This document shows positions 2,046-39,732 of a DNA stretch of 64,000 bases, piece after piece. Each line of letters begins with the position of its first letter. The first letter of the stretch is position 1. Made by a program: the position numbers and the translations under genes. A model generated the notes under the pieces. The model worked only from the letters and a program-made list of their open reading frames with translations. It made no database searches and was not told the DNA's origin. Origin of the DNA: an uncultured Acidobacteriota bacterium (GTDB lineage: Bacteria > Acidobacteriota > Polarisedimenticolia > Polarisedimenticolales > DASRJG01); contig CAYLHQ010000023.1 in NCBI GenBank assembly GCA_964383585.1, forward strand, positions 2,707 to 66,706, given 5' to 3'.

Positions 2046-3449
2046 GTGCCCTCCGCCGCCCCCGAATCGAGACGGGTGCTGGTCCTCGTCGAGCAGACCG
2101 AGACCCGGCAGCGCCTCGGCACTCTCTTGGCCCGGGTCGGTTTCGCCGCGACCCTCGTGGGGGACGAGACGCAGGGGGCGCGCGCCCTGTCCCGCGAAGA
2201 GCACGATGCCGCGATCGTCGATCTCGACCACGCCCGTCCCGGCGGTCTTGCGGCGCGCCTCCGGCGACAGACTCCCCCGATCCCGGTGCTCGCCCTCGCC
2301 GACCCCGCCCGGTTGAGGGAGGCGGTCGCGGCCCTCCGGGACGCCGCCGACGATTACCTCCTCGCCCCCCCCGATGCGGTCGAACTGCGGACACGCCTCG
2401 GCCGGCTCCTCGACCATCACGATCTCGGTTCGCGGCTCGCCCTCCTCCAGGACGAAGTCTCGAGGAACTTCGGGTACAAAAGCCTCGTCAGCCACTCTCC
2501 CGCGATGCGCGACGTCGTGCAGCGCATCGCGCGGGTCGCCCCGATGCGGGCGACGGTCCTGATCACCGGCGAAAGCGGGGTCGGGAAGGAGCTCGTCGCG
2601 CGCGCGATCCACTTCAACTCGCCCCGGAGGGACTTCCCCTTCGTCGCGATCAACTGCGCCGCCATCCCGACCAGCCTGATCGAGTCGGAACTGTTCGGCC
2701 ACGAGAAGGGGGCCTTCACCGGCGCCCACGCCCGCAACCGGGGGAAGTTCGAGATCGCGAACCGCGGCACCCTCTTCCTCGACGAGATCGGCGAGACCGA
2801 CCTCGCGACCCAGGTCAAGCTCCTCCGGGTCCTCGAGGAGCGGGAGTTCATGCGGGTCGGCGGCGATCGGTCGATCCGGGTCGACGTCCGCGTGATCGCC
2901 GCGACCAACGCGGATCTCGAGACCCTCGTCCACGTCGGCGCTTTCCGCCGCGACCTCTACTACCGCCTCAAGGTCGTGACGATCGCGGTCCCGCCGCTCC
3001 GCGAGCGGCGCAGGGACATCCGGTCGCTCGTCGAAGGGTTCCTGCAGGAGCTCTCCCGCTCGAACGCGGTCCCGATCCGGACGATCACCGCGGACGCCGT
3101 GGAGGCGCTCGAGGGATACCGCTGGCCGGGGAACGTCCGCGAGCTGAAGAACGTCTTGGAGAGCCTCCTGGTCTCGAGCCCCGGGGAGGTGATCCGCCGG
3201 GAGGACCTCCCCCCCTCGATCCAGCGGGAAGGGGCGGGACCGGAGCGCCTCGAGATCCGCCCCGGGATGACGATCGACGAGCTCGAGGCGGCGCTCATCC
3301 GCCGCACCCTCGAGGAGACGGGAGGGAACCGTACTCGCAGCGCGGCGATGCTCGGGATCGGGGTTCGCACCCTCCAGCGGCGGATCCGCGAGCTCGAGAT
3401 CCGGATCCCCCCGACGCGCCGCAGCAGCCGGCGGCGGGCCCTTCCGTGA
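2046..3449 (+). CDS. Sigma-54-dependent transcriptional activator (NtrC family): atypical receiver, AAA+, Fis-type HTH
   Basis: GESGVGKE Walker A, GAFTGA loop, LFLDEIG, WPGNVREL, C-terminal GNRTRSAAMLGIGVRTL HTH. Confidence 0.95.
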   Translation: MPSAAPESRRVLVLVEQTETRQRLGTLLARVGFAATLVGDETQGARALSREEHDAAIVDLDHARPGGLAARLRRQTPPIPVLALADPARLREAVAALRDAADDYLLAPPDAVELRTRLGRLLDHHDLGSRLALLQDEVSRNFGYKSLVSHSPAMRDVVQRIARVAPMRATVLITGESGVGKELVARAIHFNSPRRDFPFVAINCAAIPTSLIESELFGHEKGAFTGAHARNRGKFEIANRGTLFLDEIGETDLATQVKLLRVLEEREFMRVGGDRSIRVDVRVIAATNADLETLVHVGAFRRDLYYRLKVVTIAVPPLRERRRDIRSLVEGFLQELSRSNAVPIRTITADAVEALEGYRWPGNVRELKNVLESLLVSSPGEVIRREDLPPSIQREGAGPERLEIRPGMTIDELEAALIRRTLEETGGNRTRSAAMLGIGVRTLQRRIRELEIRIPPTRRSSRRRALP

Positions 3450-4409: not shown

Positions 4410-4439
4410 TTGACATCGAAAAATCGCCTTCCCTATATT
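4410..4439 (+). promoter_or_regulatory. Sigma-70-type promoter of Lys-rich microprotein 1
   Basis: TTGACA (4410-4415), 18-bp spacer, TATATT (4434-4439). Confidence 0.75.
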
Positions 4440-4499
4440 CCGCGGTGACGCATCGCCGTGCGATCGTCGAACGCGATTCGCCGGAAGGAGGTGATCGAC

Positions 4500-4562
4500 A
4501 TGGCGACGAAGAAGAAGGCCGCGAAGAAGAAGGCCACCAAGAAGAAGGCCGCCAAGAAGTAA
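4500..4562 (+). CDS. Lys/Ala-rich microprotein 1 (20 aa, MATKKKAAKKKATKKKAAKK)
   Basis: SD AAGGAGGTG just upstream, ATG...TAA, own promoter and terminator, paralog at 35523-35600. Confidence 0.8.
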   Translation: MATKKKAAKKKATKKKAAKK

Positions 4563-4588: not shown

Positions 4589-6208
4589 TCAAGAGAGATC
4601 AGGGGACGCCCGGAGGGGCGTCCCCCTTTTTTTGTCCATCCGATCGAGGATCGCCTCGAACCGCTCCCCCGCGATCGCCGCGCGCAACCGCGTCCACCGG
4701 CCGGAATACCGCCTGCGAAGCGATTCCGCCTCCGCCTCGAGGCGTTCGAGTCTCGCCTCCGCGCCCGCCCTCGCCCGTTCGGACAGGACCGTTCCGTGCT
4801 TCGCGAGGAACTTCCGGATCTCGTCGGAGGCCACGATCGTGTCCTGGTGGGCGCCGAGATGGTCCTGGAGCGCCGTGAGGCGCCGCACCAGCTCGCGGAC
4901 CCCCTCTCCTCCCAACTCGTCGTGGAACTCGAGGACGTAACGCAGCCGCTTCGCCCGGATCCGCGTGCGGTGGAGCCGCTCCGCCTCCGGGCGCGCGAGC
5001 GCGGCGTCGCCGTCGCGGACAAGTCGGTCCCGCGCGGCACGAGCTTCGGCGGCGACGTGGGAACCGACCGGGTGGAGCGCCGCCTCGGGGAGCGCCTCGA
5101 TCGACCATCCGCGGCAGACGGCGTCGAGAGTCGACAAGAGCCGCAGGTACCTCCCGGAGCGGAGTGCCTCGAGGAGCCGTTCGCGGGCCTCGTCGCGGCG
5201 GCGCTTCAGGTGCGCGAGGAAGGCAGGGAGCGTCCCCGAACCCTCGAAGCGCTCGAGGAGGACGTCGACGTCGCGGACCGCGCCGAGCCGACGCCCCAGC
5301 CAGCGCAGGTCGCGTGCGAGGGCGTCGTGGAGTTCCGGGGTCAGCGCGGGGCGATAGCTGCGGAGCGCCGCCCGGAGGCGCCGCGTCGCCACCCGCATGT
5401 CGTGAAGGTCCTCGGGGTCGCTCCCCTCGCGCGTTCCGGGGTCGTGGCGGCGGAGGCGCTGGAGCTGCCCCGAGAAGACGCGGCGCGCCGAGGTCCGCAA
5501 GGAATCCTCGGGACGGGGCTTCCCCGAGGGGACCTCGGCGAACTCGGCGTCCCCGTGGAGGGCGCGGAGGATCCGCTCGGAGTCTCCCCGCGTCGTCGCC
5601 CGGAGGGAGAACTCCCGTTCGAGACGACGGGCCGCCTCGGCCAGCGCCTCGTCGCGCAGGGTCGCCGACCGAAGCCGGACGACGTGCAGCCGGTGCGGCT
5701 CGTTCGACATCCCCCACCCCTCGACCGTCCAACTCTCGACGGCGAGCCTCCCGGCGAGGCGCCCCTCTCCCCGCACGCGGCCGAGGTCGAGATGCCGGAT
5801 CGACACCGACGCCGACGCCACCGGCTCGAGGGGGCGTCCGGCCGCGAGCGGAAGGAGCCGTTCCCGCAGCGGTCCCTCGGGGATCGGAGGAGGCCCCGCG
5901 AACCGTGCCGGGAGCGGGGCCGAATGCACGTATTCGCGGAGGACGGGGGGCGACGCGGTTTCGCTCCAGGCGAGGACCGCCTCGCGGCGACCGGTCGAAC
6001 GCCTTACGCCCAGCGAAAACCCGTTCCGCGCGAGGGAGCGGAGGTCGGTGTCGTGGAAGGTCCACTGCTCCCGGGCCGCCGCCCGCGGGAGCGCTCGGTA
6101 GCCGGCGATGGACGGGGCGCGAACGATCTCGGCGAGCGTCCTTCCGTCGGGGGCCTCGAGCACCACGCATCCCTCGCGCCCTCCCGCCCGGCGTCCCTTG
6201 CGGCTCAC
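4589..6208 (-). CDS. CYTH-like plus CHAD domain protein (polyphosphate-associated)
   Basis: CHAD motifs EDLHDMRVATRRLRAAL, LHRTRIRAKRLRYVLE and LQDHLGAHQD. N-terminal CYTH-like region (DTDLRSLARNGFSLGVR). Coupled to ppx. Confidence 0.88.
   Translation of the reverse strand: MSRKGRRAGGREGCVVLEAPDGRTLAEIVRAPSIAGYRALPRAAAREQWTFHDTDLRSLARNGFSLGVRRSTGRREAVLAWSETASPPVLREYVHSAPLPARFAGPPPIPEGPLRERLLPLAAGRPLEPVASASVSIRHLDLGRVRGEGRLAGRLAVESWTVEGWGMSNEPHRLHVVRLRSATLRDEALAEAARRLEREFSLRATTRGDSERILRALHGDAEFAEVPSGKPRPEDSLRTSARRVFSGQLQRLRRHDPGTREGSDPEDLHDMRVATRRLRAALRSYRPALTPELHDALARDLRWLGRRLGAVRDVDVLLERFEGSGTLPAFLAHLKRRRDEARERLLEALRSGRYLRLLSTLDAVCRGWSIEALPEAALHPVGSHVAAEARAARDRLVRDGDAALARPEAERLHRTRIRAKRLRYVLEFHDELGGEGVRELVRRLTALQDHLGAHQDTIVASDEIRKFLAKHGTVLSERARAGAEARLERLEAEAESLRRRYSGRWTRLRAAIAGERFEAILDRMDKKRGTPLRASPDLS
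4602..4633 (+). terminator. Rho-independent terminator
   Basis: ggggacgccc-ggag-gggcgtcccc followed by a T tract. Confidence 0.85.
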
Positions 6209-7755
6209 CGCGACCCTCCGACGCGGATCCGCACGGGAACTCCGAGGAGCGCTTCGAGCAGCTCGGTCCGGCGCCCGGCCTCCCAGACCTCGAGCTGGGC
6301 ATCGAGACCGCCGGTCGCGAGCTCGAGGACGAGGCGCTCGCCGCGGCTTCGGACCGTGACGTCCGAAACGACCCCGTACTGCGATCGGTCGAGCCCCTCG
6401 GCGAGCCTCAGGATCGACGCGAGGGCGCGCACCGTCTCCCGGCGCCTGCGGGAGAGCGGAACCGCGTCGCCGGCGCCGTTCTTCGGCTGCCCCTTACGGT
6501 TGTGCAGGCGGGCCACCTGTCCGATCACTTCGATCTCCTCGCGGGTGAATCCCAGGAGATCTCCGTGGACGATCAGGTAATACGAGTGGAGGTGGTGGTT
6601 CTCGTGGGAGATCGCGTGTCCGACGTCATGGAGGAGGGCGGCGTACTCGAGGAGGGCCCGGTCCGCGGGTTCGAGGCGGAGCCGCTCTCGGAGCTGGTCG
6701 AAGAGGCGGAGCGCGAGACGGGCGACCTGGTGGTGGTGGTTCCCGGTGTAGCCGAGCCTCCGGAGGAGGCGCATGACGCTCCGCTTCCGGACGTCCGCGA
6801 ACTTGGCGCTCTCCTCGATCCCCTTCGTGTGGCGGGCGACCCAGTCCATGAGGAGGCCCTCGCGCAGGGCCCACGTGCAGGCGGTGACCCGCTCGGCGCG
6901 GAGCAGGCGGAGGACCCGCTCGGCGAGGGCCGACCCCGCGAGCACGAGATCGACCCGCTTCTGGTCGATCCCCTTCATGCGGAGGCGCTTTTCGCGGTCC
7001 GAACGCTTGAGCGCCTCGTGCAGGTCGAGGAGTCCCTCGGCGGGAACGGCGAGGTTGTGGACGTAGTTTCCGCCGGGGTGGAGGCCCAGACGGTGGGCCG
7101 CCATCGCGATCAGCGAGAGCATCGTGCCCGAGGTCCCGACGACCCGGACGATCCCCCGGTCGGCGAGCGGCTCGAGGACCGGGCGGAGCTGCTCGTCGAG
7201 GTGGGCGCGCAGCCGTTTGAACGCCCGCTCCGTCGGAGGATCGGCGTCGAGGTACGCCTCGCTGAGCCGGGCCACCCCGAGCTTCAGGCTGTGCATCGCG
7301 GTGGGCTGCCCCCCCTCGACCGCGATCACCTCGACGCTCCCTCCCCCCGCGTCGACGATCAGGACCGGCTCGCTTCGGAGGTCGAGAGAGTTCGCGACAC
7401 CGAGCCAGACGAGACGCGCCTCCTCGCGGCCGGGGATGACCCGGACCCGGAGGCCGACTTCGTCCTTGACCCGCTGGAGGAAATCGCCGCCGTTCCGGGC
7501 CTCCCGCACGGCGCTCGTCGCAACCGTCCGGAATCGCGTGACCCCCTGCCGCTCGGCGAGGGTGCGGAAAGCGGCGAGGGTGCGCACCCCCTGGTCCATC
7601 GCGGCGCGGGTGAGGTTTCCCGTGGTGAGGGAGCGGCGGCCGAGCCTCACCATCTCCTTCGCGCGGTCCAAGACGCGGAAGTGCCCTTCCGGCTCGACCT
7701 CGGCGACGAGCATGTGGATCGAGTTGCTTCCGACGTCGATCGCCGCGATTCGCAT
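6205..7755 (-). CDS. ppx: Ppx/GppA family exopolyphosphatase with HD domain
   Basis: IAAIDVGSNS, ATSAVREARNG, GREEARL, DAGGGSVE, LREG and C-terminal LLHDVG. Confidence 0.93.
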   Translation of the reverse strand: MRIAAIDVGSNSIHMLVAEVEPEGHFRVLDRAKEMVRLGRRSLTTGNLTRAAMDQGVRTLAAFRTLAERQGVTRFRTVATSAVREARNGGDFLQRVKDEVGLRVRVIPGREEARLVWLGVANSLDLRSEPVLIVDAGGGSVEVIAVEGGQPTAMHSLKLGVARLSEAYLDADPPTERAFKRLRAHLDEQLRPVLEPLADRGIVRVVGTSGTMLSLIAMAAHRLGLHPGGNYVHNLAVPAEGLLDLHEALKRSDREKRLRMKGIDQKRVDLVLAGSALAERVLRLLRAERVTACTWALREGLLMDWVARHTKGIEESAKFADVRKRSVMRLLRRLGYTGNHHHQVARLALRLFDQLRERLRLEPADRALLEYAALLHDVGHAISHENHHLHSYYLIVHGDLLGFTREEIEVIGQVARLHNRKGQPKNGAGDAVPLSRRRRETVRALASILRLAEGLDRSQYGVVSDVTVRSRGERLVLELATGGLDAQLEVWEAGRRTELLEALLGVPVRIRVGGSR

Positions 7756-32901: not shown

Positions 32902-33892
32902 GAGGCAAATCAACGTGGCCGCGAGGTTGTTGGGGGATGGAACGCTCGAGGTGGCGCGAAGGGTGGGGAGGACTCGCGCCGCGCAGGAGGCCGAAGTTGC
33001 GGTGGGTGTGACAGTTCCAGCGCCACGCCCGTGGCAACCGACCCGAGACCGCGCTTTCGGGACGGGGCGGGACCGGTACCCGGAGGACCCAACGCAACTT
33101 CGGCCCGGCCGATCGCGACCCGATTCGCCGGCGACCGGCAGGCGGAAAGCGCGGGGAACGCGCACGCCCCAACCCACAATCTCGCGGCCACGTTGGAGGC
33201 AAATCAACGTGGCCGCGAGGTTGTTGGGGGATGGAACGCTCGAGGTGGCGCGAAGGGTGGGGAGGACTCGCGCCGCGCAGGAGGCCGAAGTTGCGGTGGG
33301 TGTGACAGTTCCAGCGCCACGCCCGTGGCAACCGACCCGAGACCGCGCTTTCGGGACGGGGCGGGACCGGTACCCGGAGGACCCAACGCAACTTCGGCCC
33401 GGCCGATCGCGACCCGATTCGCCGGCGACCGGCAGGCGGAAAGCGCGGGGAACGCGCACGCCCCAACCCACAATCTCGCGGCCACGTTGCACGGAATCCA
33501 ACGTGGCCGCGAGGTTGTTGGGGGATGGAACGCTCGAGGTGGCGCGAAGGGTGGGGAGGACTCGCGCCGCGCAGGAGGCCGAAGTTGCGGTGGGTGTGAC
33601 AGTTCCAGCGCCACGCCCGTGGCAACCGACCCGAGACCGCGCTTTCGGGACGGGGCGGGACCGGTACCCGGAGGACCCAACGCAACTTCGGCCCGGCCGA
33701 TCGCGACCCGATTCGCCGGCGACCGGCAGGCGGAAAGCGCGGGGAACGCGCACGCCCCAACCCACAATCTCGCGGCCACGTTGCACGGAATCGCCGACTT
33801 GCGCTCCATTTCCGCGTCCTCGGACGGTCCGGCTGCCCGGACGGCCCGTCCGAAGGCGGACCGTCCCCGCCCACAACCTCGCGGCCACGTTG
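32902..33892. repeat. Array of three identical 285-bp elements with 20-bp terminal inverted repeats (period 294 bp), plus a solo fourth right-end repeat; MITE/REP-like
   Basis: Units 32911-33195, 33205-33489 and 33499-33783. Ends caacgtggccgcgaggttgt...acaatctcgcggccacgttg, separated by 9-bp spacers. Solo acaacctcgcggccacgttg at 33873-33892. Confidence 0.9.
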
Positions 33893-33949
33893 GTTTGAAT
33901 CGGGCCTCCTCAGGACCCATATTCCGGACGACCGAGGGAGGGAAACCGA

Positions 33950-35374
33950 TTGGCCCAGCTCGACCCGATGCTGCGCGCCCTCGTCGACCGGGGCGCGGGC
34001 AGCCTCGAGCTCGCCGAAGGGGGGCGACCGACGTTCCGGTTCCCGCAGGGAGATCGTCCGGTCTCGCAGGCCGTCCTTTCCCGTGCCCAGATCCTCACGC
34101 TCGTCGGCGAACTGTCCGGCAAACCCGTCGTGCCGGGTCGGGACGGGGGTCCGTCGGAGTTCGTCTACGCGACGCCGGACGGCCGTGCCTTCACCTGCCG
34201 CACCGAATCGGGCGATGGAGGAATCCGGGTCCGGATCGCCCCGGCGGCCGGGACCGGAGCCGAGAGACCGGCCCCCGCGCGCGAGGGGGCCCCGGAGATC
34301 GAGCGCTACCTTGCGCGGCTCGTCGAATCGGGGGCGAGCGACCTCCATCTGAGCACCGGAGAGGTGCCGATGGTCCGCCTTCACGGCGAGATGGGAAAGC
34401 TCGAGGGGGAAAAGCCGCTGACCCCCGAACAGGCGGCCCGGCTCATCTATCCGATCGTCCCTCCCGGGAACAAGCAGGCATTCGAGGAGACGAGCGACTC
34501 CGACTTCGCCTACGAGATCCCAGGGCTCGCCCGCTTCCGCTGCAACATCTTTCAGGATCGGAAGGGGCTCGGTGCGGTCTTCCGCGTGATCCCGAGCAAG
34601 ATCCCCTCCGCCGCCGACCTCAACCTGCCGCAGTCGCTTCTCGATCTCTGCGCGCTGCCGAAAGGGCTCGTCCTCGTGACCGGTCCGACCGGGTCGGGAA
34701 AGTCGACCACCCTCGCTGCGCTGGTCGACCACGTGAACCGTACGCGCACCGACCACATCATCACGATCGAGGACCCGATCGAGTTCGTGCACGAGAACCG
34801 GAAGTGTCTCATCAACCAGAGGCAGGTCGGGCTCCACACCCGTGACTTCAAGCAGGCCCTGCGCGCGGCGCTCCGCGAGGACCCCGACATCGTCCTCGTC
34901 GGCGAGATGCGCGACCTCGAGACGATCGCGATCGCGATCGAGACGGCGGAGACCGGCCACCTCGTCTTCGGGACGCTCCACACCTCCACCGCGCCTTCGA
35001 CCGTCGACCGGATCATCGACCAGTTCCCGGCTGACCGTCAGTCACAGATCCGCGTGATGCTCTCCGAATCGCTCCGGGGGGTCGTCTCGCAAAACCTCCT
35101 CCGCCGGAAGGAAGGGGGCCGGGTGGCGGTCATGGAGATCCTGATCGGGATCCCCGCGATCGCGAACCTGATCCGCGAGGGAAAGACGTTCCAGATCCCG
35201 AGCATCATGCAAACCGGCAAGAAGCACGGGATGGTGCTGCTCAACGACGCGCTCGCCGACCTCGTCCGCAAGGGAATCGTGACTGCGGACGAGGCGCTCG
35301 CGAAGGCCGTCGACAAGAACGGCCTCGCTGCGCTCCTGCGAGGAGCCTCCGCATCGGCCGCCGCCCCCTCCTGA
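33950..35374 (+). CDS. pilT: Type IV pilus retraction ATPase PilT/PilU family with N-terminal extension
   Basis: GPTGSGKSTTLAA, ITIEDPIEF, ALREDPDIVLVGEMRDLET, GTLHT, ANLIREGKTFQI. Confidence 0.9.
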   Translation: MAQLDPMLRALVDRGAGSLELAEGGRPTFRFPQGDRPVSQAVLSRAQILTLVGELSGKPVVPGRDGGPSEFVYATPDGRAFTCRTESGDGGIRVRIAPAAGTGAERPAPAREGAPEIERYLARLVESGASDLHLSTGEVPMVRLHGEMGKLEGEKPLTPEQAARLIYPIVPPGNKQAFEETSDSDFAYEIPGLARFRCNIFQDRKGLGAVFRVIPSKIPSAADLNLPQSLLDLCALPKGLVLVTGPTGSGKSTTLAALVDHVNRTRTDHIITIEDPIEFVHENRKCLINQRQVGLHTRDFKQALRAALREDPDIVLVGEMRDLETIAIAIETAETGHLVFGTLHTSTAPSTVDRIIDQFPADRQSQIRVMLSESLRGVVSQNLLRRKEGGRVAVMEILIGIPAIANLIREGKTFQIPSIMQTGKKHGMVLLNDALADLVRKGIVTADEALAKAVDKNGLAALLRGASASAAAPS

Positions 35375-35399: not shown

Positions 35400-35427
35400 T
35401 TGACACAGATTCACCACCCTATATATT
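35400..35427 (+). promoter_or_regulatory. Sigma-70-type promoter of Lys-rich microprotein 2
   Basis: TTGACA (35400-35405), 16-bp spacer, TATATT (35422-35427). Confidence 0.7.
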
Positions 35428-35522
35428 GGGTGGCGATTTGGGGAGGTCCCCAGATCTTGAGCCCAGGAACTCCCGGCCACGGGCTCGAACGAATGCACGG
35501 GAGAGGCAAGGAGTCCGACACG

Positions 35523-35600
35523 ATGGCCACCAAGAAGAAGGCCGCCAAGAAGAAGGTCGCGAAGAAGAAAGTCGCCAAGAAGAAGGCTGCCAAGAAGTAA
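35523..35600 (+). CDS. Lys/Ala-rich microprotein 2 (25 aa, MATKKKAAKKKVAKKKVAKKKAAKK)
   Basis: SD AAGGAG upstream, same MATKKKAAKKK start as 4500-4562, own promoter and terminator. Confidence 0.8.
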   Translation: MATKKKAAKKKVAKKKVAKKKAAKK

Positions 35601-35631
35601 ACAGGCAACAGATCTCAGGCCGTCACGAGGA

Positions 35632-35661
35632 GGGCCGGCGCTCAGGCGCCGGCCCTTTTTT
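35632..35661 (+). terminator. Rho-independent terminator
   Basis: gggccggcgc-tcag-gcgccggccc followed by TTTTTT. Confidence 0.85.
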
Positions 35662-36104
35662 CATGCGCCGTTCGTCCCGGTGTCGCTCAGGTCGATCAGA
35701 CGAATCCCGAGCTGTCTCGCCACCTCGATGCTCCGCGTGTCCCGGTAGAATTCGCCGTAGTAGATCTCGCGGATCCCCGCGTTTGCGATCAGTTTGAAGC
35801 AGTTCCAGCAGGGGGAGGCGGTCGTGTACAGCTCGGCGCCGTCGATTCGGACGCCGTTCTTCGCCGCCTGGATGATCGCGTTCGCCTCGGCGTGCACCGT
35901 CGCCACGCAGTGGCCGTTCTCCATGAGGTGGCCGACCTCGTCGCAGTGCGGCATCCCCCGGATCGATCCGTTGTACCCCGTCGAGAGGATCGTCTTGTCT
36001 CGCACGATGACCGCGCCCACGTTCTTCCGGTCGCAGGTCGATCGCGTGGCGGCCTGCCGCGCGATGTTCATGAAGTAGGTGTGCCAGTCAACCCGCTTGG
36101 ACAC
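35661..36104 (-). CDS. dCMP deaminase / ComEB family protein
   Basis: STCDRKNVGAVIV, GYNG, HAEANA and SPCWNC zinc motifs. Confidence 0.92.
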   Translation of the reverse strand: MSKRVDWHTYFMNIARQAATRSTCDRKNVGAVIVRDKTILSTGYNGSIRGMPHCDEVGHLMENGHCVATVHAEANAIIQAAKNGVRIDGAELYTTASPCWNCFKLIANAGIREIYYGEFYRDTRSIEVARQLGIRLIDLSDTGTNGA

Positions 36105-37156: not shown

Positions 37157-38551
37157 TCATCCCACTTGCTTGTTCTTCGTCCACCTCGGGTTCTTGATCT
37201 CGTACTTCGCGACCTTGTAGTTCATGACGCGCGACGAGATCCCGAGGAACTGCGCGGCGTCCTTCTGGACCCAGTTGCTGATGCGGAGCGCCTCGAGGAT
37301 CGCCTGCCGCTCCAGCTCGTCGAGGGGAATACCGTTCGGCGGGAGACGCAGGTTGAGCGACGCGACGTTGTCGCCGCCCCCGGCGCGATTCTCCGACCCG
37401 ACGTGCAGGTCCTCCTCGGTGACGTAGCGCCCCTCGGCCATCAGCACGGCCCGCTCGACGGCGTTTTCGAGCTCGCGGATGTTCCCCGGCCAGGTGTGAC
37501 GCTTCAGCGCCCGGACGGCGCTCGGGTCGAGGCCGCGGACGTCCTTGTGCAGTTCCCGCCCGAACCTCTCGATGAAATGGGTCGCGAGGGGGACGATGTC
37601 TTCCTTCCGCTCCCGGAGCGGCGGAACGGTGATCGTCACGACGTTGAGCCGATAGTAGAGGTCCTCGCGGAACTCGCCGCGCTGGATCGCGTCCTCGAGG
37701 TTCTTGTTGGTGGCGGCGACGAGGCGCACGTCGACCTTGACGGTGCGCGAGCCTCCGAGCCGCTCGAACTCGCGCTCCTGGAGGACGCGCAGCACCTTCG
37801 TCTGCGTCGACGCCGTCATGTTCCCGATCTCATCGAGGAACAGGGTCCCCTCGTTCGCGAGCTCGAACCGCCCGATCCGCTGCCGATCGGCTCCGGTGTA
37901 GGCCCCGCGCTCGTGGCCGAAGAGTTCCGACTCGAGGAGGTTCTCGTGCAGAGCCGCACAGTTCATCTTCACGAACGATCGGTGCGCGCGGCTCGAGTTC
38001 CGGTGGAGCGCCTCGGCGACGAGTTCCTTCCCGACCCCCGTCTCCCCGAGGATCAGGACGGTGGCGTTCGACCGTGCGACCTTCTCGATCGTGCGGAAGA
38101 TCTCTTTCATCTGGGGACTCTCCCCCACGATGTTCTCGAACGAGGGAACCAGGGAGTTTCGGTCCTGGGCCTGGAGCCGGGCGAGGAGCCTCCGGTGCTC
38201 GAGCGCCTTTTCGACCTTCAGCTCGAGTTCTTCGAGGTCGAACGGCTTGAGCACGTAGTCGTGAGCCCCCGCCTTCATCGCCTCGACCGCCGACTCGACC
38301 GTCCCGTAGGCGGTCATCATGATCCCGACCGTCCCGTCGTTGATCATCTTGCAGCGCTTGAGGACGTCGAGCCCGCTGCGCTCGGGCATCTTGTAGTCGG
38401 TGACGAGGACGTCGAAGACCTCCTCCTCGAGGTGGCGGACCGCCTCGGTGCCGTCCGGGGCCTCGGTGACCTCCCAGCCCCGCTCGCGGAACGCCGTGGC
38501 GATCCCTTCGCGGAGGGTCGGCTCGTCCTCGGCCACGAGAATCTTCTTCAT
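37157..38551 (-). CDS. Sigma-54-dependent response regulator (NtrC/AtoC family)
   Basis: Canonical receiver (AEDE, VTDYKMP, KPF), GETGVGKE, GAYTGA, WPGNIREL, HTH. Confidence 0.95.
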   Translation of the reverse strand: MKKILVAEDEPTLREGIATAFRERGWEVTEAPDGTEAVRHLEEEVFDVLVTDYKMPERSGLDVLKRCKMINDGTVGIMMTAYGTVESAVEAMKAGAHDYVLKPFDLEELELKVEKALEHRRLLARLQAQDRNSLVPSFENIVGESPQMKEIFRTIEKVARSNATVLILGETGVGKELVAEALHRNSSRAHRSFVKMNCAALHENLLESELFGHERGAYTGADRQRIGRFELANEGTLFLDEIGNMTASTQTKVLRVLQEREFERLGGSRTVKVDVRLVAATNKNLEDAIQRGEFREDLYYRLNVVTITVPPLRERKEDIVPLATHFIERFGRELHKDVRGLDPSAVRALKRHTWPGNIRELENAVERAVLMAEGRYVTEEDLHVGSENRAGGGDNVASLNLRLPPNGIPLDELERQAILEALRISNWVQKDAAQFLGISSRVMNYKVAKYEIKNPRWTKNKQVG

Positions 38552-39732
38552 CGAATTGCCCCCTCGAGCGTCCGCACGGCGACCGGCAGGCGGACGGTGA
38601 AGACCGTCCCCTCTCCCTTCCGGCTGTGTACGTCGATGAGTCCGCGGTGGGAGTCCACGATCTTCCGGGCCATCGCGAGGCCCACCCCGGACCCCTGCTT
38701 CTTGGTGGTGAAGAACGGATAGAAGAGCTTGTCGGCGTGCTCCTCCGCGATCCCGCATCCGGTGTCGGCGACACGGACCACGGCGTAGCGATCGAATCCC
38801 GTCCAAGGGTCGGCGGGCGCGGGGCCCGCCGGCCGGTACGGCACGGTCGGTCCTGCAGGGGCCGGCACCGATCCGGTCTCGACCGAGAGCGTCCCCTCGT
38901 CTCCCATCGCCTCCATCGCGTTGAGAAAGAGGTTCTCGAAGACCTGGCGCAGTTGGCCGCGGTCCATGAGCATCTCGCCCGGGTCGGCGCCGTACGCGCG
39001 GACGACGCGGATCCCCGGCCGCCCGCACCGTCCGACGGCGGTCGCGAGCGCCTCGTCGAGCACGTCGGTGAGCCGAGCCTCGGAGAGGTTGAGCGACACC
39101 GGACGGACGAACTCCAGGCTCGACGTGATCGTCCGGTTGAGGCGGCGGACTTCCGCGATGATCTTCTCGAGGAGATCGCGCTCGGCCCCTTGCGCCCCCA
39201 TCCTCCGCTTCAGGAGCGAGCAGGAGACCTCGATCGAGGCGAGCGGGTTCCGGATCTCGTGCGCGAGATTCGCGGCCATCTGCCCGAGCGCCGCGAGCCG
39301 GTCTTTGAGCCGCTCCTGCTCCTCCTTGTGCTCGACGTGGGTGAGATCCTTGAAGAAGATCGCAGCACCCTCCACGGAGCCGTCTTCCGCGCGGACGAGC
39401 GACAGGGTGAACCCGATCGTCTTCCCGCAATCGGATCGACTTCGCACGTCGATCTCGGCGCGGTTCGGCAGGCTCGCCATCGCGAACGACTCGCGGAGGA
39501 TCTGGGCGAGTTGCGGGTGACCGGCGAGGACCTCCTCGACGGAGGCCCCCTCGCGTGTCCCGGGTTCGAGTTCGAGGATCTGCCGGGCGTGGTCGTTGAG
39601 CATCACGACCGTCCCGGCCCGATCGATCGTCAGGATGCCGCAGCGCATCCCCTCGATCAGCCGGCGGTGGAATGCCCCCGTTCCCTGTCCGTCCGGAAGG
39701 GGTTCCGCCACACGTCGAACCGGAGACTTCAC
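38548..39732 (-). CDS. Cytoplasmic PAS-domain sensor histidine kinase
   Basis: PAS region, AHEIRNPLASI, NLFLNAMEAM, DTGCGI, FFTTK, GSGVGLA. No obvious TM helix. Start uncertain (GTG 39732 or 39711). Confidence 0.9.
   Translation of the reverse strand: MKSPVRRVAEPLPDGQGTGAFHRRLIEGMRCGILTIDRAGTVVMLNDHARQILELEPGTREGASVEEVLAGHPQLAQILRESFAMASLPNRAEIDVRSRSDCGKTIGFTLSLVRAEDGSVEGAAIFFKDLTHVEHKEEQERLKDRLAALGQMAANLAHEIRNPLASIEVSCSLLKRRMGAQGAERDLLEKIIAEVRRLNRTITSSLEFVRPVSLNLSEARLTDVLDEALATAVGRCGRPGIRVVRAYGADPGEMLMDRGQLRQVFENLFLNAMEAMGDEGTLSVETGSVPAPAGPTVPYRPAGPAPADPWTGFDRYAVVRVADTGCGIAEEHADKLFYPFFTTKKQGSGVGLAMARKIVDSHRGLIDVHSRKGEGTVFTVRLPVAVRTLEGAIR

Follow-up and report, generated by a model that had tools for sequence, protein, structure and literature searches.

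The C-terminal domain of the eukaryotic linker histone H1 is rich in lysine and alanine, is disordered, and neutralizes DNA charge, and lysine-rich tails are also known from HU proteins, with mycobacterial and Deinococcus examples. The H1 domain, the character of which is also noted in PMC9239181, spans ca. 100 amino acids (aa), contains S/TPKK motifs, and is attached to a winged-helix globular domain. H1-like proteins are ca. 100 to 350 aa long, usually with flanks or a second domain. Hc2 is made of K-rich pentamers in variable repeat number and binds both DNA and RNA (PMC2848022), and the KPAA tail of AlgP binds DNA and localizes to polyphosphate granules (PMC9239181). Here, we analyzed a stretch of 64,000 nucleotides (nt) from an uncultured member of the Acidobacteriota (contig CAYLHQ010000023.1; this whole stretch is referred to as the window), which contains two paralogous micro-open reading frames (micro-ORFs), at positions 4500 (locus 1) and 35523 (locus 2), encoding lysine-rich peptides of 20 and 25 aa that are all repeat. 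A preliminary description of the window had proposed a family of ultra-small H1-like proteins. By repeat type, we place these genes with the known lysine-rich H1-like repeat proteins, of which they would be a minimal form that stands alone and that is widespread and unannotated.

Compared with the Hc2/BpH1 type (PF07382 HC2; NF038052 and NF038053), the micro-ORFs share an architecture of pentamers rich in lysine, in which the spacer residues are Ala, Val, Thr, or Pro, as well as a size that varies by repeat number (20 to 24 aa at locus 1 and 19 to 29 aa at locus 2). However, Hc2 has 165 to 237 aa, nonrepeat flanks, and two basic residues per pentamer, whereas the micro-ORFs encode 16 to 29 aa, with three lysines per pentamer and nothing else. 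The C-terminal tail of AlgP/PhaF from Pseudomonas is likewise a disordered Lys/Ala-rich repeat, but its unit is the tetramer KPAA with one Lys, repeated over ca. 154 aa on a folded N-terminal domain, while the micro-ORFs are pentameric and stand alone. With the C-terminal domain of eukaryotic H1, the likeness seen is one of composition.

Positions 35400 to 35661 of the plus strand form one complete small transcription unit, in which every element claimed in the preliminary description is present in the sequence. Its features are as follows.

35400 to 35427, plus strand: sigma-70-type promoter, TTGACA (35400 to 35405), 16-nt spacer, and TATATT (35422 to 35427), with an 11/12 consensus match.
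35434 to 35522, plus strand: 5′ leader of ca. 89 nt with two hairpins, from the fold, with a predicted start near 35434.
35435 to 35456 and 35457 to 35488, plus strand: leader hairpins SL1 and SL2, from the fold and the consensus structure of the orthologues.
35450 to 35464, plus strand: invariant 15-mer CCAGATCTTGAGCCC, from the 3′ arm of SL1 through the 5′ arm of SL2.
35508 to 35513, plus strand: Shine-Dalgarno (SD) sequence AAGGAG, 9 nt 5′ of the ATG.
35523 to 35600, plus strand: micro-ORF encoding MATKKKAAKKKVAKKKVAKKKAAKK, 25 codons plus TAA, identified by sequence, orthologues, the ratio of nonsynonymous to synonymous changes (pN/pS), and RNA contigs.
35601 to 35631, plus strand: 3′ untranslated region (UTR) of 31 nt, with the motif CTCAGGCCGT at 35614 to 35623 kept in orthologues.
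35632 to 35661, plus strand: intrinsic terminator, with the 10-bp GC stem GGGCCGGCGC-TCAG-GCGCCGGCCC (35632 to 35655) followed by T6 (35656 to 35661).

The promoter, the SD sequence, and the terminator thus stand as first described, and so does the structured leader, although its length, given before as roughly 95 nt, becomes ca. 89 nt if transcription starts near 35434. The earlier details of the peptide required correction: the ATG lies at 35523, and 14 of the 25 residues are Lys. In shuffled sequences, only 0.1 sites with an 11/12 sigma-70 match would be expected per 1.2 kb, and orthologues of locus 2 keep a promoter of the form CTCTTGACA-N17-TATATTGGG, together with a homologous terminator hairpin and T run. 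The terminator of the window was seen in the fold and was not listed by the pattern scanner, probably because an extension of the stem consumes the T run. Upstream, the gene for a PilT-type ATPase ends at 35374, while downstream, the T run reaches the stop codon of the dCMP deaminase gene (35661 to 36104, minus strand), which is convergent with the unit.

In order to gather orthologues, we relied on neighboring genes (deaminase and PilT relatives for locus 2 and CHAD relatives for locus 1), so that the sampling was blind to the micro-ORF itself. The locus 2 unit was found between pilT and the deaminase gene or no more than 3 kb from the latter, encoding peptides of 19 aa in many loci (MATKKKAAKKTTKKKAAKK, including L238 of assembly GCA_036275915.1), 26 aa in L240 (MATKRKAAKKKKTTKRKASKKKAAKK), and 29 aa in L239 (MATKKKAAKKKAAKKTTKKKATRKKAAKK), with further variants of 19 to 21 aa. 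The PilT proteins of these orthologues of different lengths (19 to 29 aa) were 66 to 79% identical to that of the window. The best named PilT relatives, with 66 to 67% identity, belong to "Candidatus Polarisedimenticolaceae" (Acidobacteriota), and one such assembly contains the unit of pilT, micro-ORF, and deaminase gene. Orthologues of both loci were present in the European Nucleotide Archive metagenome ERZ925370. Exact matches to the DNA of the window were found only in one freshwater metagenome run, the exact pattern of the 25-residue peptide had no match in metagenome contigs, and a comparison with named genome loci (DNA and translated) returned only a generic sigma-54 activator domain.

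The differences among orthologues were synonymous changes, K/R swaps, and whole-codon indels, with both peptide ends constant (MATKKKAAKK... and ...KKKAAKK). Pooled over five clades, the pN/pS ratio was 0.07, a value biased downward for the clades taken from the pattern scan described below, because the scan pattern fixes nine lysine codons; the neighbor-ascertained sets are unaffected, and in that of 19-aa peptides there were 43 synonymous versus 0 nonsynonymous pairwise differences. Along similar lines, the variable sites in four clades were distributed over codon positions 1, 2, and 3 as 4, 5, and 36. The reading frame is therefore under the purifying selection that the preliminary description had named as its check, and RNA contigs cover the unit. 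In each of four metatranscriptomes (wetland and sediment), one contig of ca. 170 nt and ca. 95% identity extended from 35443 or 35450 to 35616 or 35618, spanning the leader, the ORF, and the 3′ UTR up to the terminator hairpin, and none of the four contained RNA contigs on pilT or the deaminase gene. The differences from the window listed for these contigs were four in the leader and a single one in the ORF, which is synonymous (AAA to AAG at 35570). For locus 1, one soil metatranscriptome contained 302 contigs at least 88% alike over the ORF; their word depths add up to about 18,000, and other lysine-rich mRNAs may be among them. These data suggest a high natural abundance of transcripts from K-rich ORFs of this kind, with the reservation that the depth of contigs reflects expression poorly and that DNA can occur in metatranscriptome runs. 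We are highly confident that the micro-ORF is a translated gene.

The paralogue at locus 1 has the same architecture in a different sequence, as follows.

4410 to 4439, plus strand: promoter TTGACA-N18-TATATT, with an 11/12 match, conserved in L230 to L236.
4446 to 4499, plus strand: short leader, with a fold z-score of −4.1.
4485 to 4496, plus strand: SD sequence AAGGAGGTGATC of 12 nt, read from the sequence.
4500 to 4562, plus strand: micro-ORF encoding MATKKKAAKKKATKKKAAKK, 20 codons plus TAA, from the sequence and from orthologues of 20 to 24 aa at the same place.
4602 to 4633, plus strand: intrinsic terminator, with a 10-bp stem (4602 to 4625) followed by T7.

The 12-nt SD sequence AAGGAGGTGATC is complementary to the usual 3′ end of the 16S rRNA; according to the predicted fold, it lies in a loop, and the region of the AUG is paired with the 5′ end of the leader. 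The peptide has 11 Lys in 20 residues. Its terminator faces a convergent CHAD gene (4589 to 6208, minus strand), so that both micro-ORFs have convergent genes on their 3′ side. Within the 64-kb window, with a G+C content of 69.4%, these two were the only K-rich reading frames, and their promoters were the only sites on either strand reaching 11/12 of the sigma-70 consensus. Among CHAD relatives of 89, 86, 56, and 40 to 43% identity, the gene block remained unchanged, with the response regulator, Ppx, and CHAD on one strand and the micro-ORF, an alcohol dehydrogenase, and an NtrC-type activator facing them on the other; the orthologous peptides were MATKKKAAKKKATKKKAAKK, MATKKKAAKKKTTKKKAAKK, MATKKKAAKKKAAKRTTKKKAAKK, and MATKKKAAKKAAKKTTKKKAAKK. 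The leader was nearly identical in L230, L231, and L232 (CHAD 86, 56, and 89% identical) and showed no compensatory pairs, the sequences being few and too alike. As first noted, both paralogues share their first 11 residues and differ in codons, leaders, and terminators. Since each keeps its own leader across relatives, with its own orthologues and its own syntenic position, the duplication is old and not an assembly artifact, in agreement with the original proposal. The two paralogues, with their different leaders, are probably regulated differently.

Several other features were seen around these loci. An operon of CHAD and Ppx/GppA exopolyphosphatase genes (4589 to 7755, minus strand) is convergent on the micro-ORF of locus 1, and its order is kept down to 40% CHAD identity. 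Genes for sigma-54-dependent (NtrC-type) activators (2046 to 3449, plus strand, and 37166 to 38563, minus strand) lie ca. 2 kb or less from each micro-ORF of the window, and among the scan matches listed, 13 loci of the Eisenbacteria type (including L011, L015, L049, L059, L080, L085, L090, L091, L093, L098, L100, and L107) likewise have such a gene immediately 5′ of the micro-ORF. Given that the micro-ORF promoters are sigma-70-like, this proximity may be a coincidence. Between a PPIase gene and pilT, there are 3.0 tandem copies of a 294-nt unit (32911 to 33792; 99% identity) and a partial copy (33852 to 33893), each unit being closed by a terminal inverted repeat of ca. 23 nt, with fold z-scores of −4.3 (plus strand) and −5.3 (minus strand). 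L238 and L240 have just ca. 125 to 155 nt at this place, and the repeat had neither an Rfam match nor a copy in any relative locus retrieved.

We then put the two genes into perspective by scanning one genome per species for the pattern MAxKKKxxKKKxxKKK, which gave at least 120 matches; the counts that follow refer to the matches listed. A total of 87 of the 120 were stand-alone ORFs of 16 to 37 aa, 71 of them with a clear SD, and they belonged to at least 10 phyla, so that the family extends far beyond a single phylum. They included Pseudomonadota (Reyranella, Steroidobacteraceae, and others), Acidobacteriota, Eisenbacteria, Verrucomicrobiota, and Planctomycetota, as well as Nitrospirota, Bdellovibrionota, Gemmatimonadota, Omnitrophota, groups of the candidate phyla radiation (CPR), and some metagenome-assembled genomes (MAGs) labeled as archaea, and a few such K-rich micro-ORFs were also found in viral contigs. 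Across clades, stand-alone forms of 16 to 27 aa recurred. For the Reyranella type (13 loci), the Verrucomicrobia (6 loci), and the Eisenbacteria type (13 loci), the respective peptides MAAKKKAAKKKAAKKKKQ, MAKKKKAAKKKSAKKKRH, and MAAKKKAAKKK[AGV]TKKKAAKKKK were fixed within the clade, while the DNA varied synonymously. From 24 members, the consensus MAxKKKAAKKKxxKKKxAKKK was derived. The remaining matches formed a length continuum, with pure repeats of 52 to 122 aa, so that the variable repeat number predicted for the family holds both at locus 2 (19, 25, 26, and 29 aa) and beyond it (up to 122 aa).

The same N-terminal module was found fused to HU (two matches), SWIB (two matches), and phosphofructokinase (one match). 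In the HU (L023 and L035) and SWIB (L057 and L064) proteins, an identical MAxKKKxxKKKxxKKK module is appended to a folded DNA-binding domain, whereas in the micro-ORF the module is the whole protein. The phosphofructokinase ORF (L102; 457 aa, with the N-terminal tail MAAKKKTAKKKVAKKK) is an unexpected partner for a nucleic acid-binding module. Gene neighborhoods were constant within clades, not between them: nrdJ and a TetR gene in Reyranella; a histidine kinase, an NtrC-type activator, and UvrA in Eisenbacteria; and an EVE domain gene and rpiA in a gammaproteobacterial group. Across 27 de-duplicated lineages, no universal gene neighbor was found, the top family being RpiA in four, all from one gammaproteobacterial group, and this lack of a conserved partner fits a general housekeeping role. 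A CTAACC motif was also observed 6 to 14 nt upstream of the SD in L012, L022, L029, L038, L061, L217, L223, L225, and relatives, which belong to unrelated lineages (Reyranella, Steroidobacteraceae-type gammaproteobacteria, a Terriglobia MAG, and three viral contigs). In Reyranella and Verrucomicrobia, the motif is present in the 3′ UTRs as well, and it is absent from the copies of the window.

The expectation that such genes are easily missed by annotation was borne out. On the contigs retrieved, gene callers skipped the ORF or replaced it with an upstream extension of 66 or 38 aa or with an antisense ORF of 48 aa, and only once was a true product, that of 29 aa, called. The 48-aa antisense ORF was listed in L233 (4575 to 4721), L235 (3024 to 3170), L236 (3541 to 3687), and L237 (3536 to 3682), a systematic annotation artifact to which the K-rich repeat gives rise. 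When eight true peptides were looked up in a collection of ca. 15 billion proteins, none was found, and only the 66-aa artifact was present. The micro-forms had no match in Pfam, NCBIfam, or PHROGs (for HC2/H1-like models, up to an E value of 10). Among the long pure-repeat forms, those of 91 to 112 aa matched Pfam HC2 with a best E value of 6.5e-7 (30 bits, cutoff of 40), and their scores against HC2, NF038052, and NF038053 (24 to 30 bits) were all below the respective cutoffs of 40, 80, and 135. In the literature, from which most subscription journals were outside coverage, we found no description of such microproteins, and KKKAAKKK-type strings appeared only as unrelated expression tags. 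Trypsin would cut KKKxA peptides into di- and tripeptides, and the same loss to trypsin has been pointed out for AlgP and PhaF (PMC9239181).

While the unit anatomy, conservation, purifying selection, RNA presence, and family breadth are established by the analysis above, the function that we favor, with modest confidence, is that of an abundant stand-alone H1-tail-like polycation, which would bind nucleic acids or other polyanions electrostatically and neutralize or compact them. Each locus would be a self-contained and probably strongly expressed gene for a presumably cytoplasmic peptide. Transcription would start at the near-consensus sigma-70 promoter and stop at the intrinsic terminator, yielding an mRNA with a conserved structured leader that, at locus 2, would begin with a 5′-terminal stem-loop of the mRNA-stabilizing kind. 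From the good SD, MA(T/A)KKK(xxKKK)n would be translated, with the Met before Ala probably removed. With a net charge of about +11 to +14, the peptides contain neither acidic nor large hydrophobic residues, and their helical hydrophobic moment is 0.10 to 0.11, versus 0.45 to 0.56 for magainin 2 and LL-37; they are thus not membrane peptides, nor do they form a folded domain. Lacking a hydrophobic face and a fold of its own, the product would correspond to the lysine/alanine pentamer tail of H1-like proteins (Hc2, BpH1, and the AlgP/PhaF tail) and of some HU and SWIB proteins, standing alone. Its most likely action would be a sequence-independent, electrostatic binding of cellular polyanions, chiefly DNA and RNA (including rRNA) and possibly polyphosphate. 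Depending on salt, this binding would neutralize the charge of the targets and lead to their compaction or protection, like an encoded oligolysine or polyamine. That the module also occurs fused to HU and SWIB domains points toward DNA as one target, and binding of DNA or compaction of the nucleoid by the 20- to 25-aa peptides may be envisaged. Judging from the pattern of substitutions, selection appears to keep the charge (K/R swaps being tolerated), small spacers (A, T, V, G, S, and P), and the two ends, and not the exact length. A general link to polyphosphate, suggested by the Ppx-CHAD neighbors of locus 1 and the AlgP precedent, was rejected; this neighborhood is confined to the lineage of the window, and no polyphosphate genes were found near the micro-ORFs of other clades.

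A number of points weigh against this polycation model. The micro-forms match no family model, and the matches of the long forms to HC2 and NCBIfam models may reflect composition alone. A peptide of 20 to 25 residues cannot bridge DNA segments as an H1-like protein of 150 to 350 aa does. The strict length and C terminus within clades (KKKKQ in Reyranella and KKKRH in Verrucomicrobia) hint at a more specific partner than bulk polyanions. Strongly conserved noncoding parts, such as the invariant 15-mer, are left unexplained. To these should be added the limits given above on the pN/pS ratio of the pattern-scan clades, on contig depth and the possible presence of DNA in metatranscriptome runs, and on the matches to locus 1 in soil.

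The main alternative, which we regard as unlikely, is an unannotated ribosomal or ribosome-bound microprotein comparable to bS22, bL37, bTHX, and eL41, that is, a tiny basic helix sitting in an rRNA pocket and made in ribosome-like amounts. We know of no ribosome structure or proteome for any carrier organism, although no search for one was made. The known proteins of this type have 24 to 33 aa, are often unannotated, and, in the case of bS22 and eL41, are at least 60% basic. The micro-ORFs agree with them in size, with 20 and 25 aa, 55 to 56% Lys, and a promoter and terminator of their own; their 55 to 56% K/R compares with 68% in the 25-aa eL41. The history of bS22, with 61% K/R in ca. 30 aa, unannotated in Borrelia and found only by cryo-electron microscopy (PMC10618245), also fits, as do the strongest promoters of the window and the strong SD sites, the presence of the family in reduced CPR and DPANN-type genomes, the length and C terminus fixed within some clades, and the location of rplM-rpsI within 3.5 kb in three unrelated lineage groups (clusters 13 and 20) among the scan matches listed. 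However, bS22-type proteins are fixed, nonrepetitive, and Arg rich, whereas the micro-ORF family is a K/A repeat of variable length without sequence similarity to them; neither the single peptide nor the 24-member profile matched any PDB chain, ribosomal ones included, up to an E value of 10. A range of 19 to 29 aa among close orthologues, and a continuum up to 122 aa, is hard to fit into a fixed rRNA pocket, and the pure K/A/V/T repeat lacks the R, W, L, and M anchor residues of eL41. In addition, the same module is fused to DNA-binding domains, and the de-duplicated context scan showed no enrichment of ribosomal genes (2 of 133 neighboring ORFs had Ribosomal_L13).

It is quite improbable that the RNA is the main product, namely, a small regulatory or dual-function RNA in which the conserved motifs of the leader and 3′ UTR would act on other targets and the peptide would be secondary. 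For locus 2, 15 orthologous leaders could be aligned and support SL1 and SL2, and in the consensus structure (12 to 15 orthologues), 92.9% of the cells were paired, versus 28 to 52% with the partners slid. Four pairs had compensatory changes, with a covariation score of 0.233 versus 0.146 in shuffles, in an alignment that was fitted to the model and thus favors the structure. A 5′-terminal stem-loop is a known mRNA-stabilizing feature. The 15-mer CCAGATCTTGAGCCC was identical in 15 of 15 leaders while PilT identity fell to 66%, the motif CTCAGGCCGT is conserved in the 3′ UTR, the leader of locus 1 is almost unchanged at only 56% CHAD identity, and the transcript is a discrete one of ca. 200 nt with its own terminator, all of which would suit an RNA function. 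On the other hand, variation at third positions, indels only in frame, and a conserved SD spacing and stop position speak for the peptide, and leaders are unrelated between clades while the peptide type is shared. Across the 87 sources to which the covariance model of the leader was applied (window and deaminase-, CHAD-, and PilT-derived loci), no copy was found beyond the orthologous set, and none elsewhere in the window, and no Rfam family matched at the gathering threshold over the whole window, with only subthreshold hits to terminator-like ends of unrelated small RNAs at the E-value threshold for both loci. Any function of the RNA would come on top of the coding function and could not take its place. 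The 15-mer could be a binding site, and a look-alike, CAGATCTCAGGCC, lies 3′ of the stop codon at 35609 to 35621 in the window and is also found in L239 and L240.

Far less probable is a regulatory leader peptide, or sensor of lysyl-tRNA supply, in which translation of the Lys codons would control a downstream gene. The ORF is indeed a dense run of Lys codons, and in some clades (Reyranella with TetR, gammaproteobacteria with rpiA, and Eisenbacteria with uvrA), a co-oriented gene follows 70 to 330 nt downstream and no clear T run is present. However, attenuators have a co-oriented upstream position and alternative folds, and the micro-ORFs of the window have neither; both end at strong terminators and face convergent genes, and the folds of both loci show a single terminator hairpin, with no alternative terminator/antiterminator fold seen. 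The downstream genes differ between clades, none being lysine related, and the nonlysine positions are also under selection, restricted to small residues. Least probable of all is a secreted or membrane-active cationic antimicrobial peptide, which the short and highly cationic sequence would suit but which is characterized by an amphipathic helix or export signal and by export or immunity genes, whereas the micro-ORFs of the window have no signal peptide or hydrophobic segment, the low hydrophobic moment given above, no export, modification, or immunity genes nearby, and a distribution and conservation that look housekeeping-like.

Returning to the stand-alone polycation, a broader possibility can be put forward only tentatively, namely, that KKKxA peptides of 16 to 29 residues are an unrecognized core component of the cell, made in bulk in many bacterial phyla and some CPR/archaeal lineages. 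They could be either an encoded oligolysine acting as a major intracellular polycation, in the charge balance of chromosome, ribosome, or polyphosphate, or a new and widely distributed ribosome- or nucleoid-bound microprotein. That they have gone unseen so far would be due to gene finders, which pass them over, and to trypsin, which degrades them. For the annotation of small ORFs, they offer a test case in which the SD, promoter, terminator, and pattern of synonymous substitutions are enough to call a gene. If the peptides are as abundant as the promoters and metatranscriptome contigs suggest, a common component of the bacterial cytoplasm would be missing from annotations, protein databases, and tryptic proteomes in many phyla. 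This would bear on how bacteria without classical histones neutralize and compact their nucleic acids, on the minimal functional unit of an H1-type tail, and on a possible origin of bacterial H1-like proteins from such micro-genes through the expansion of repeats.

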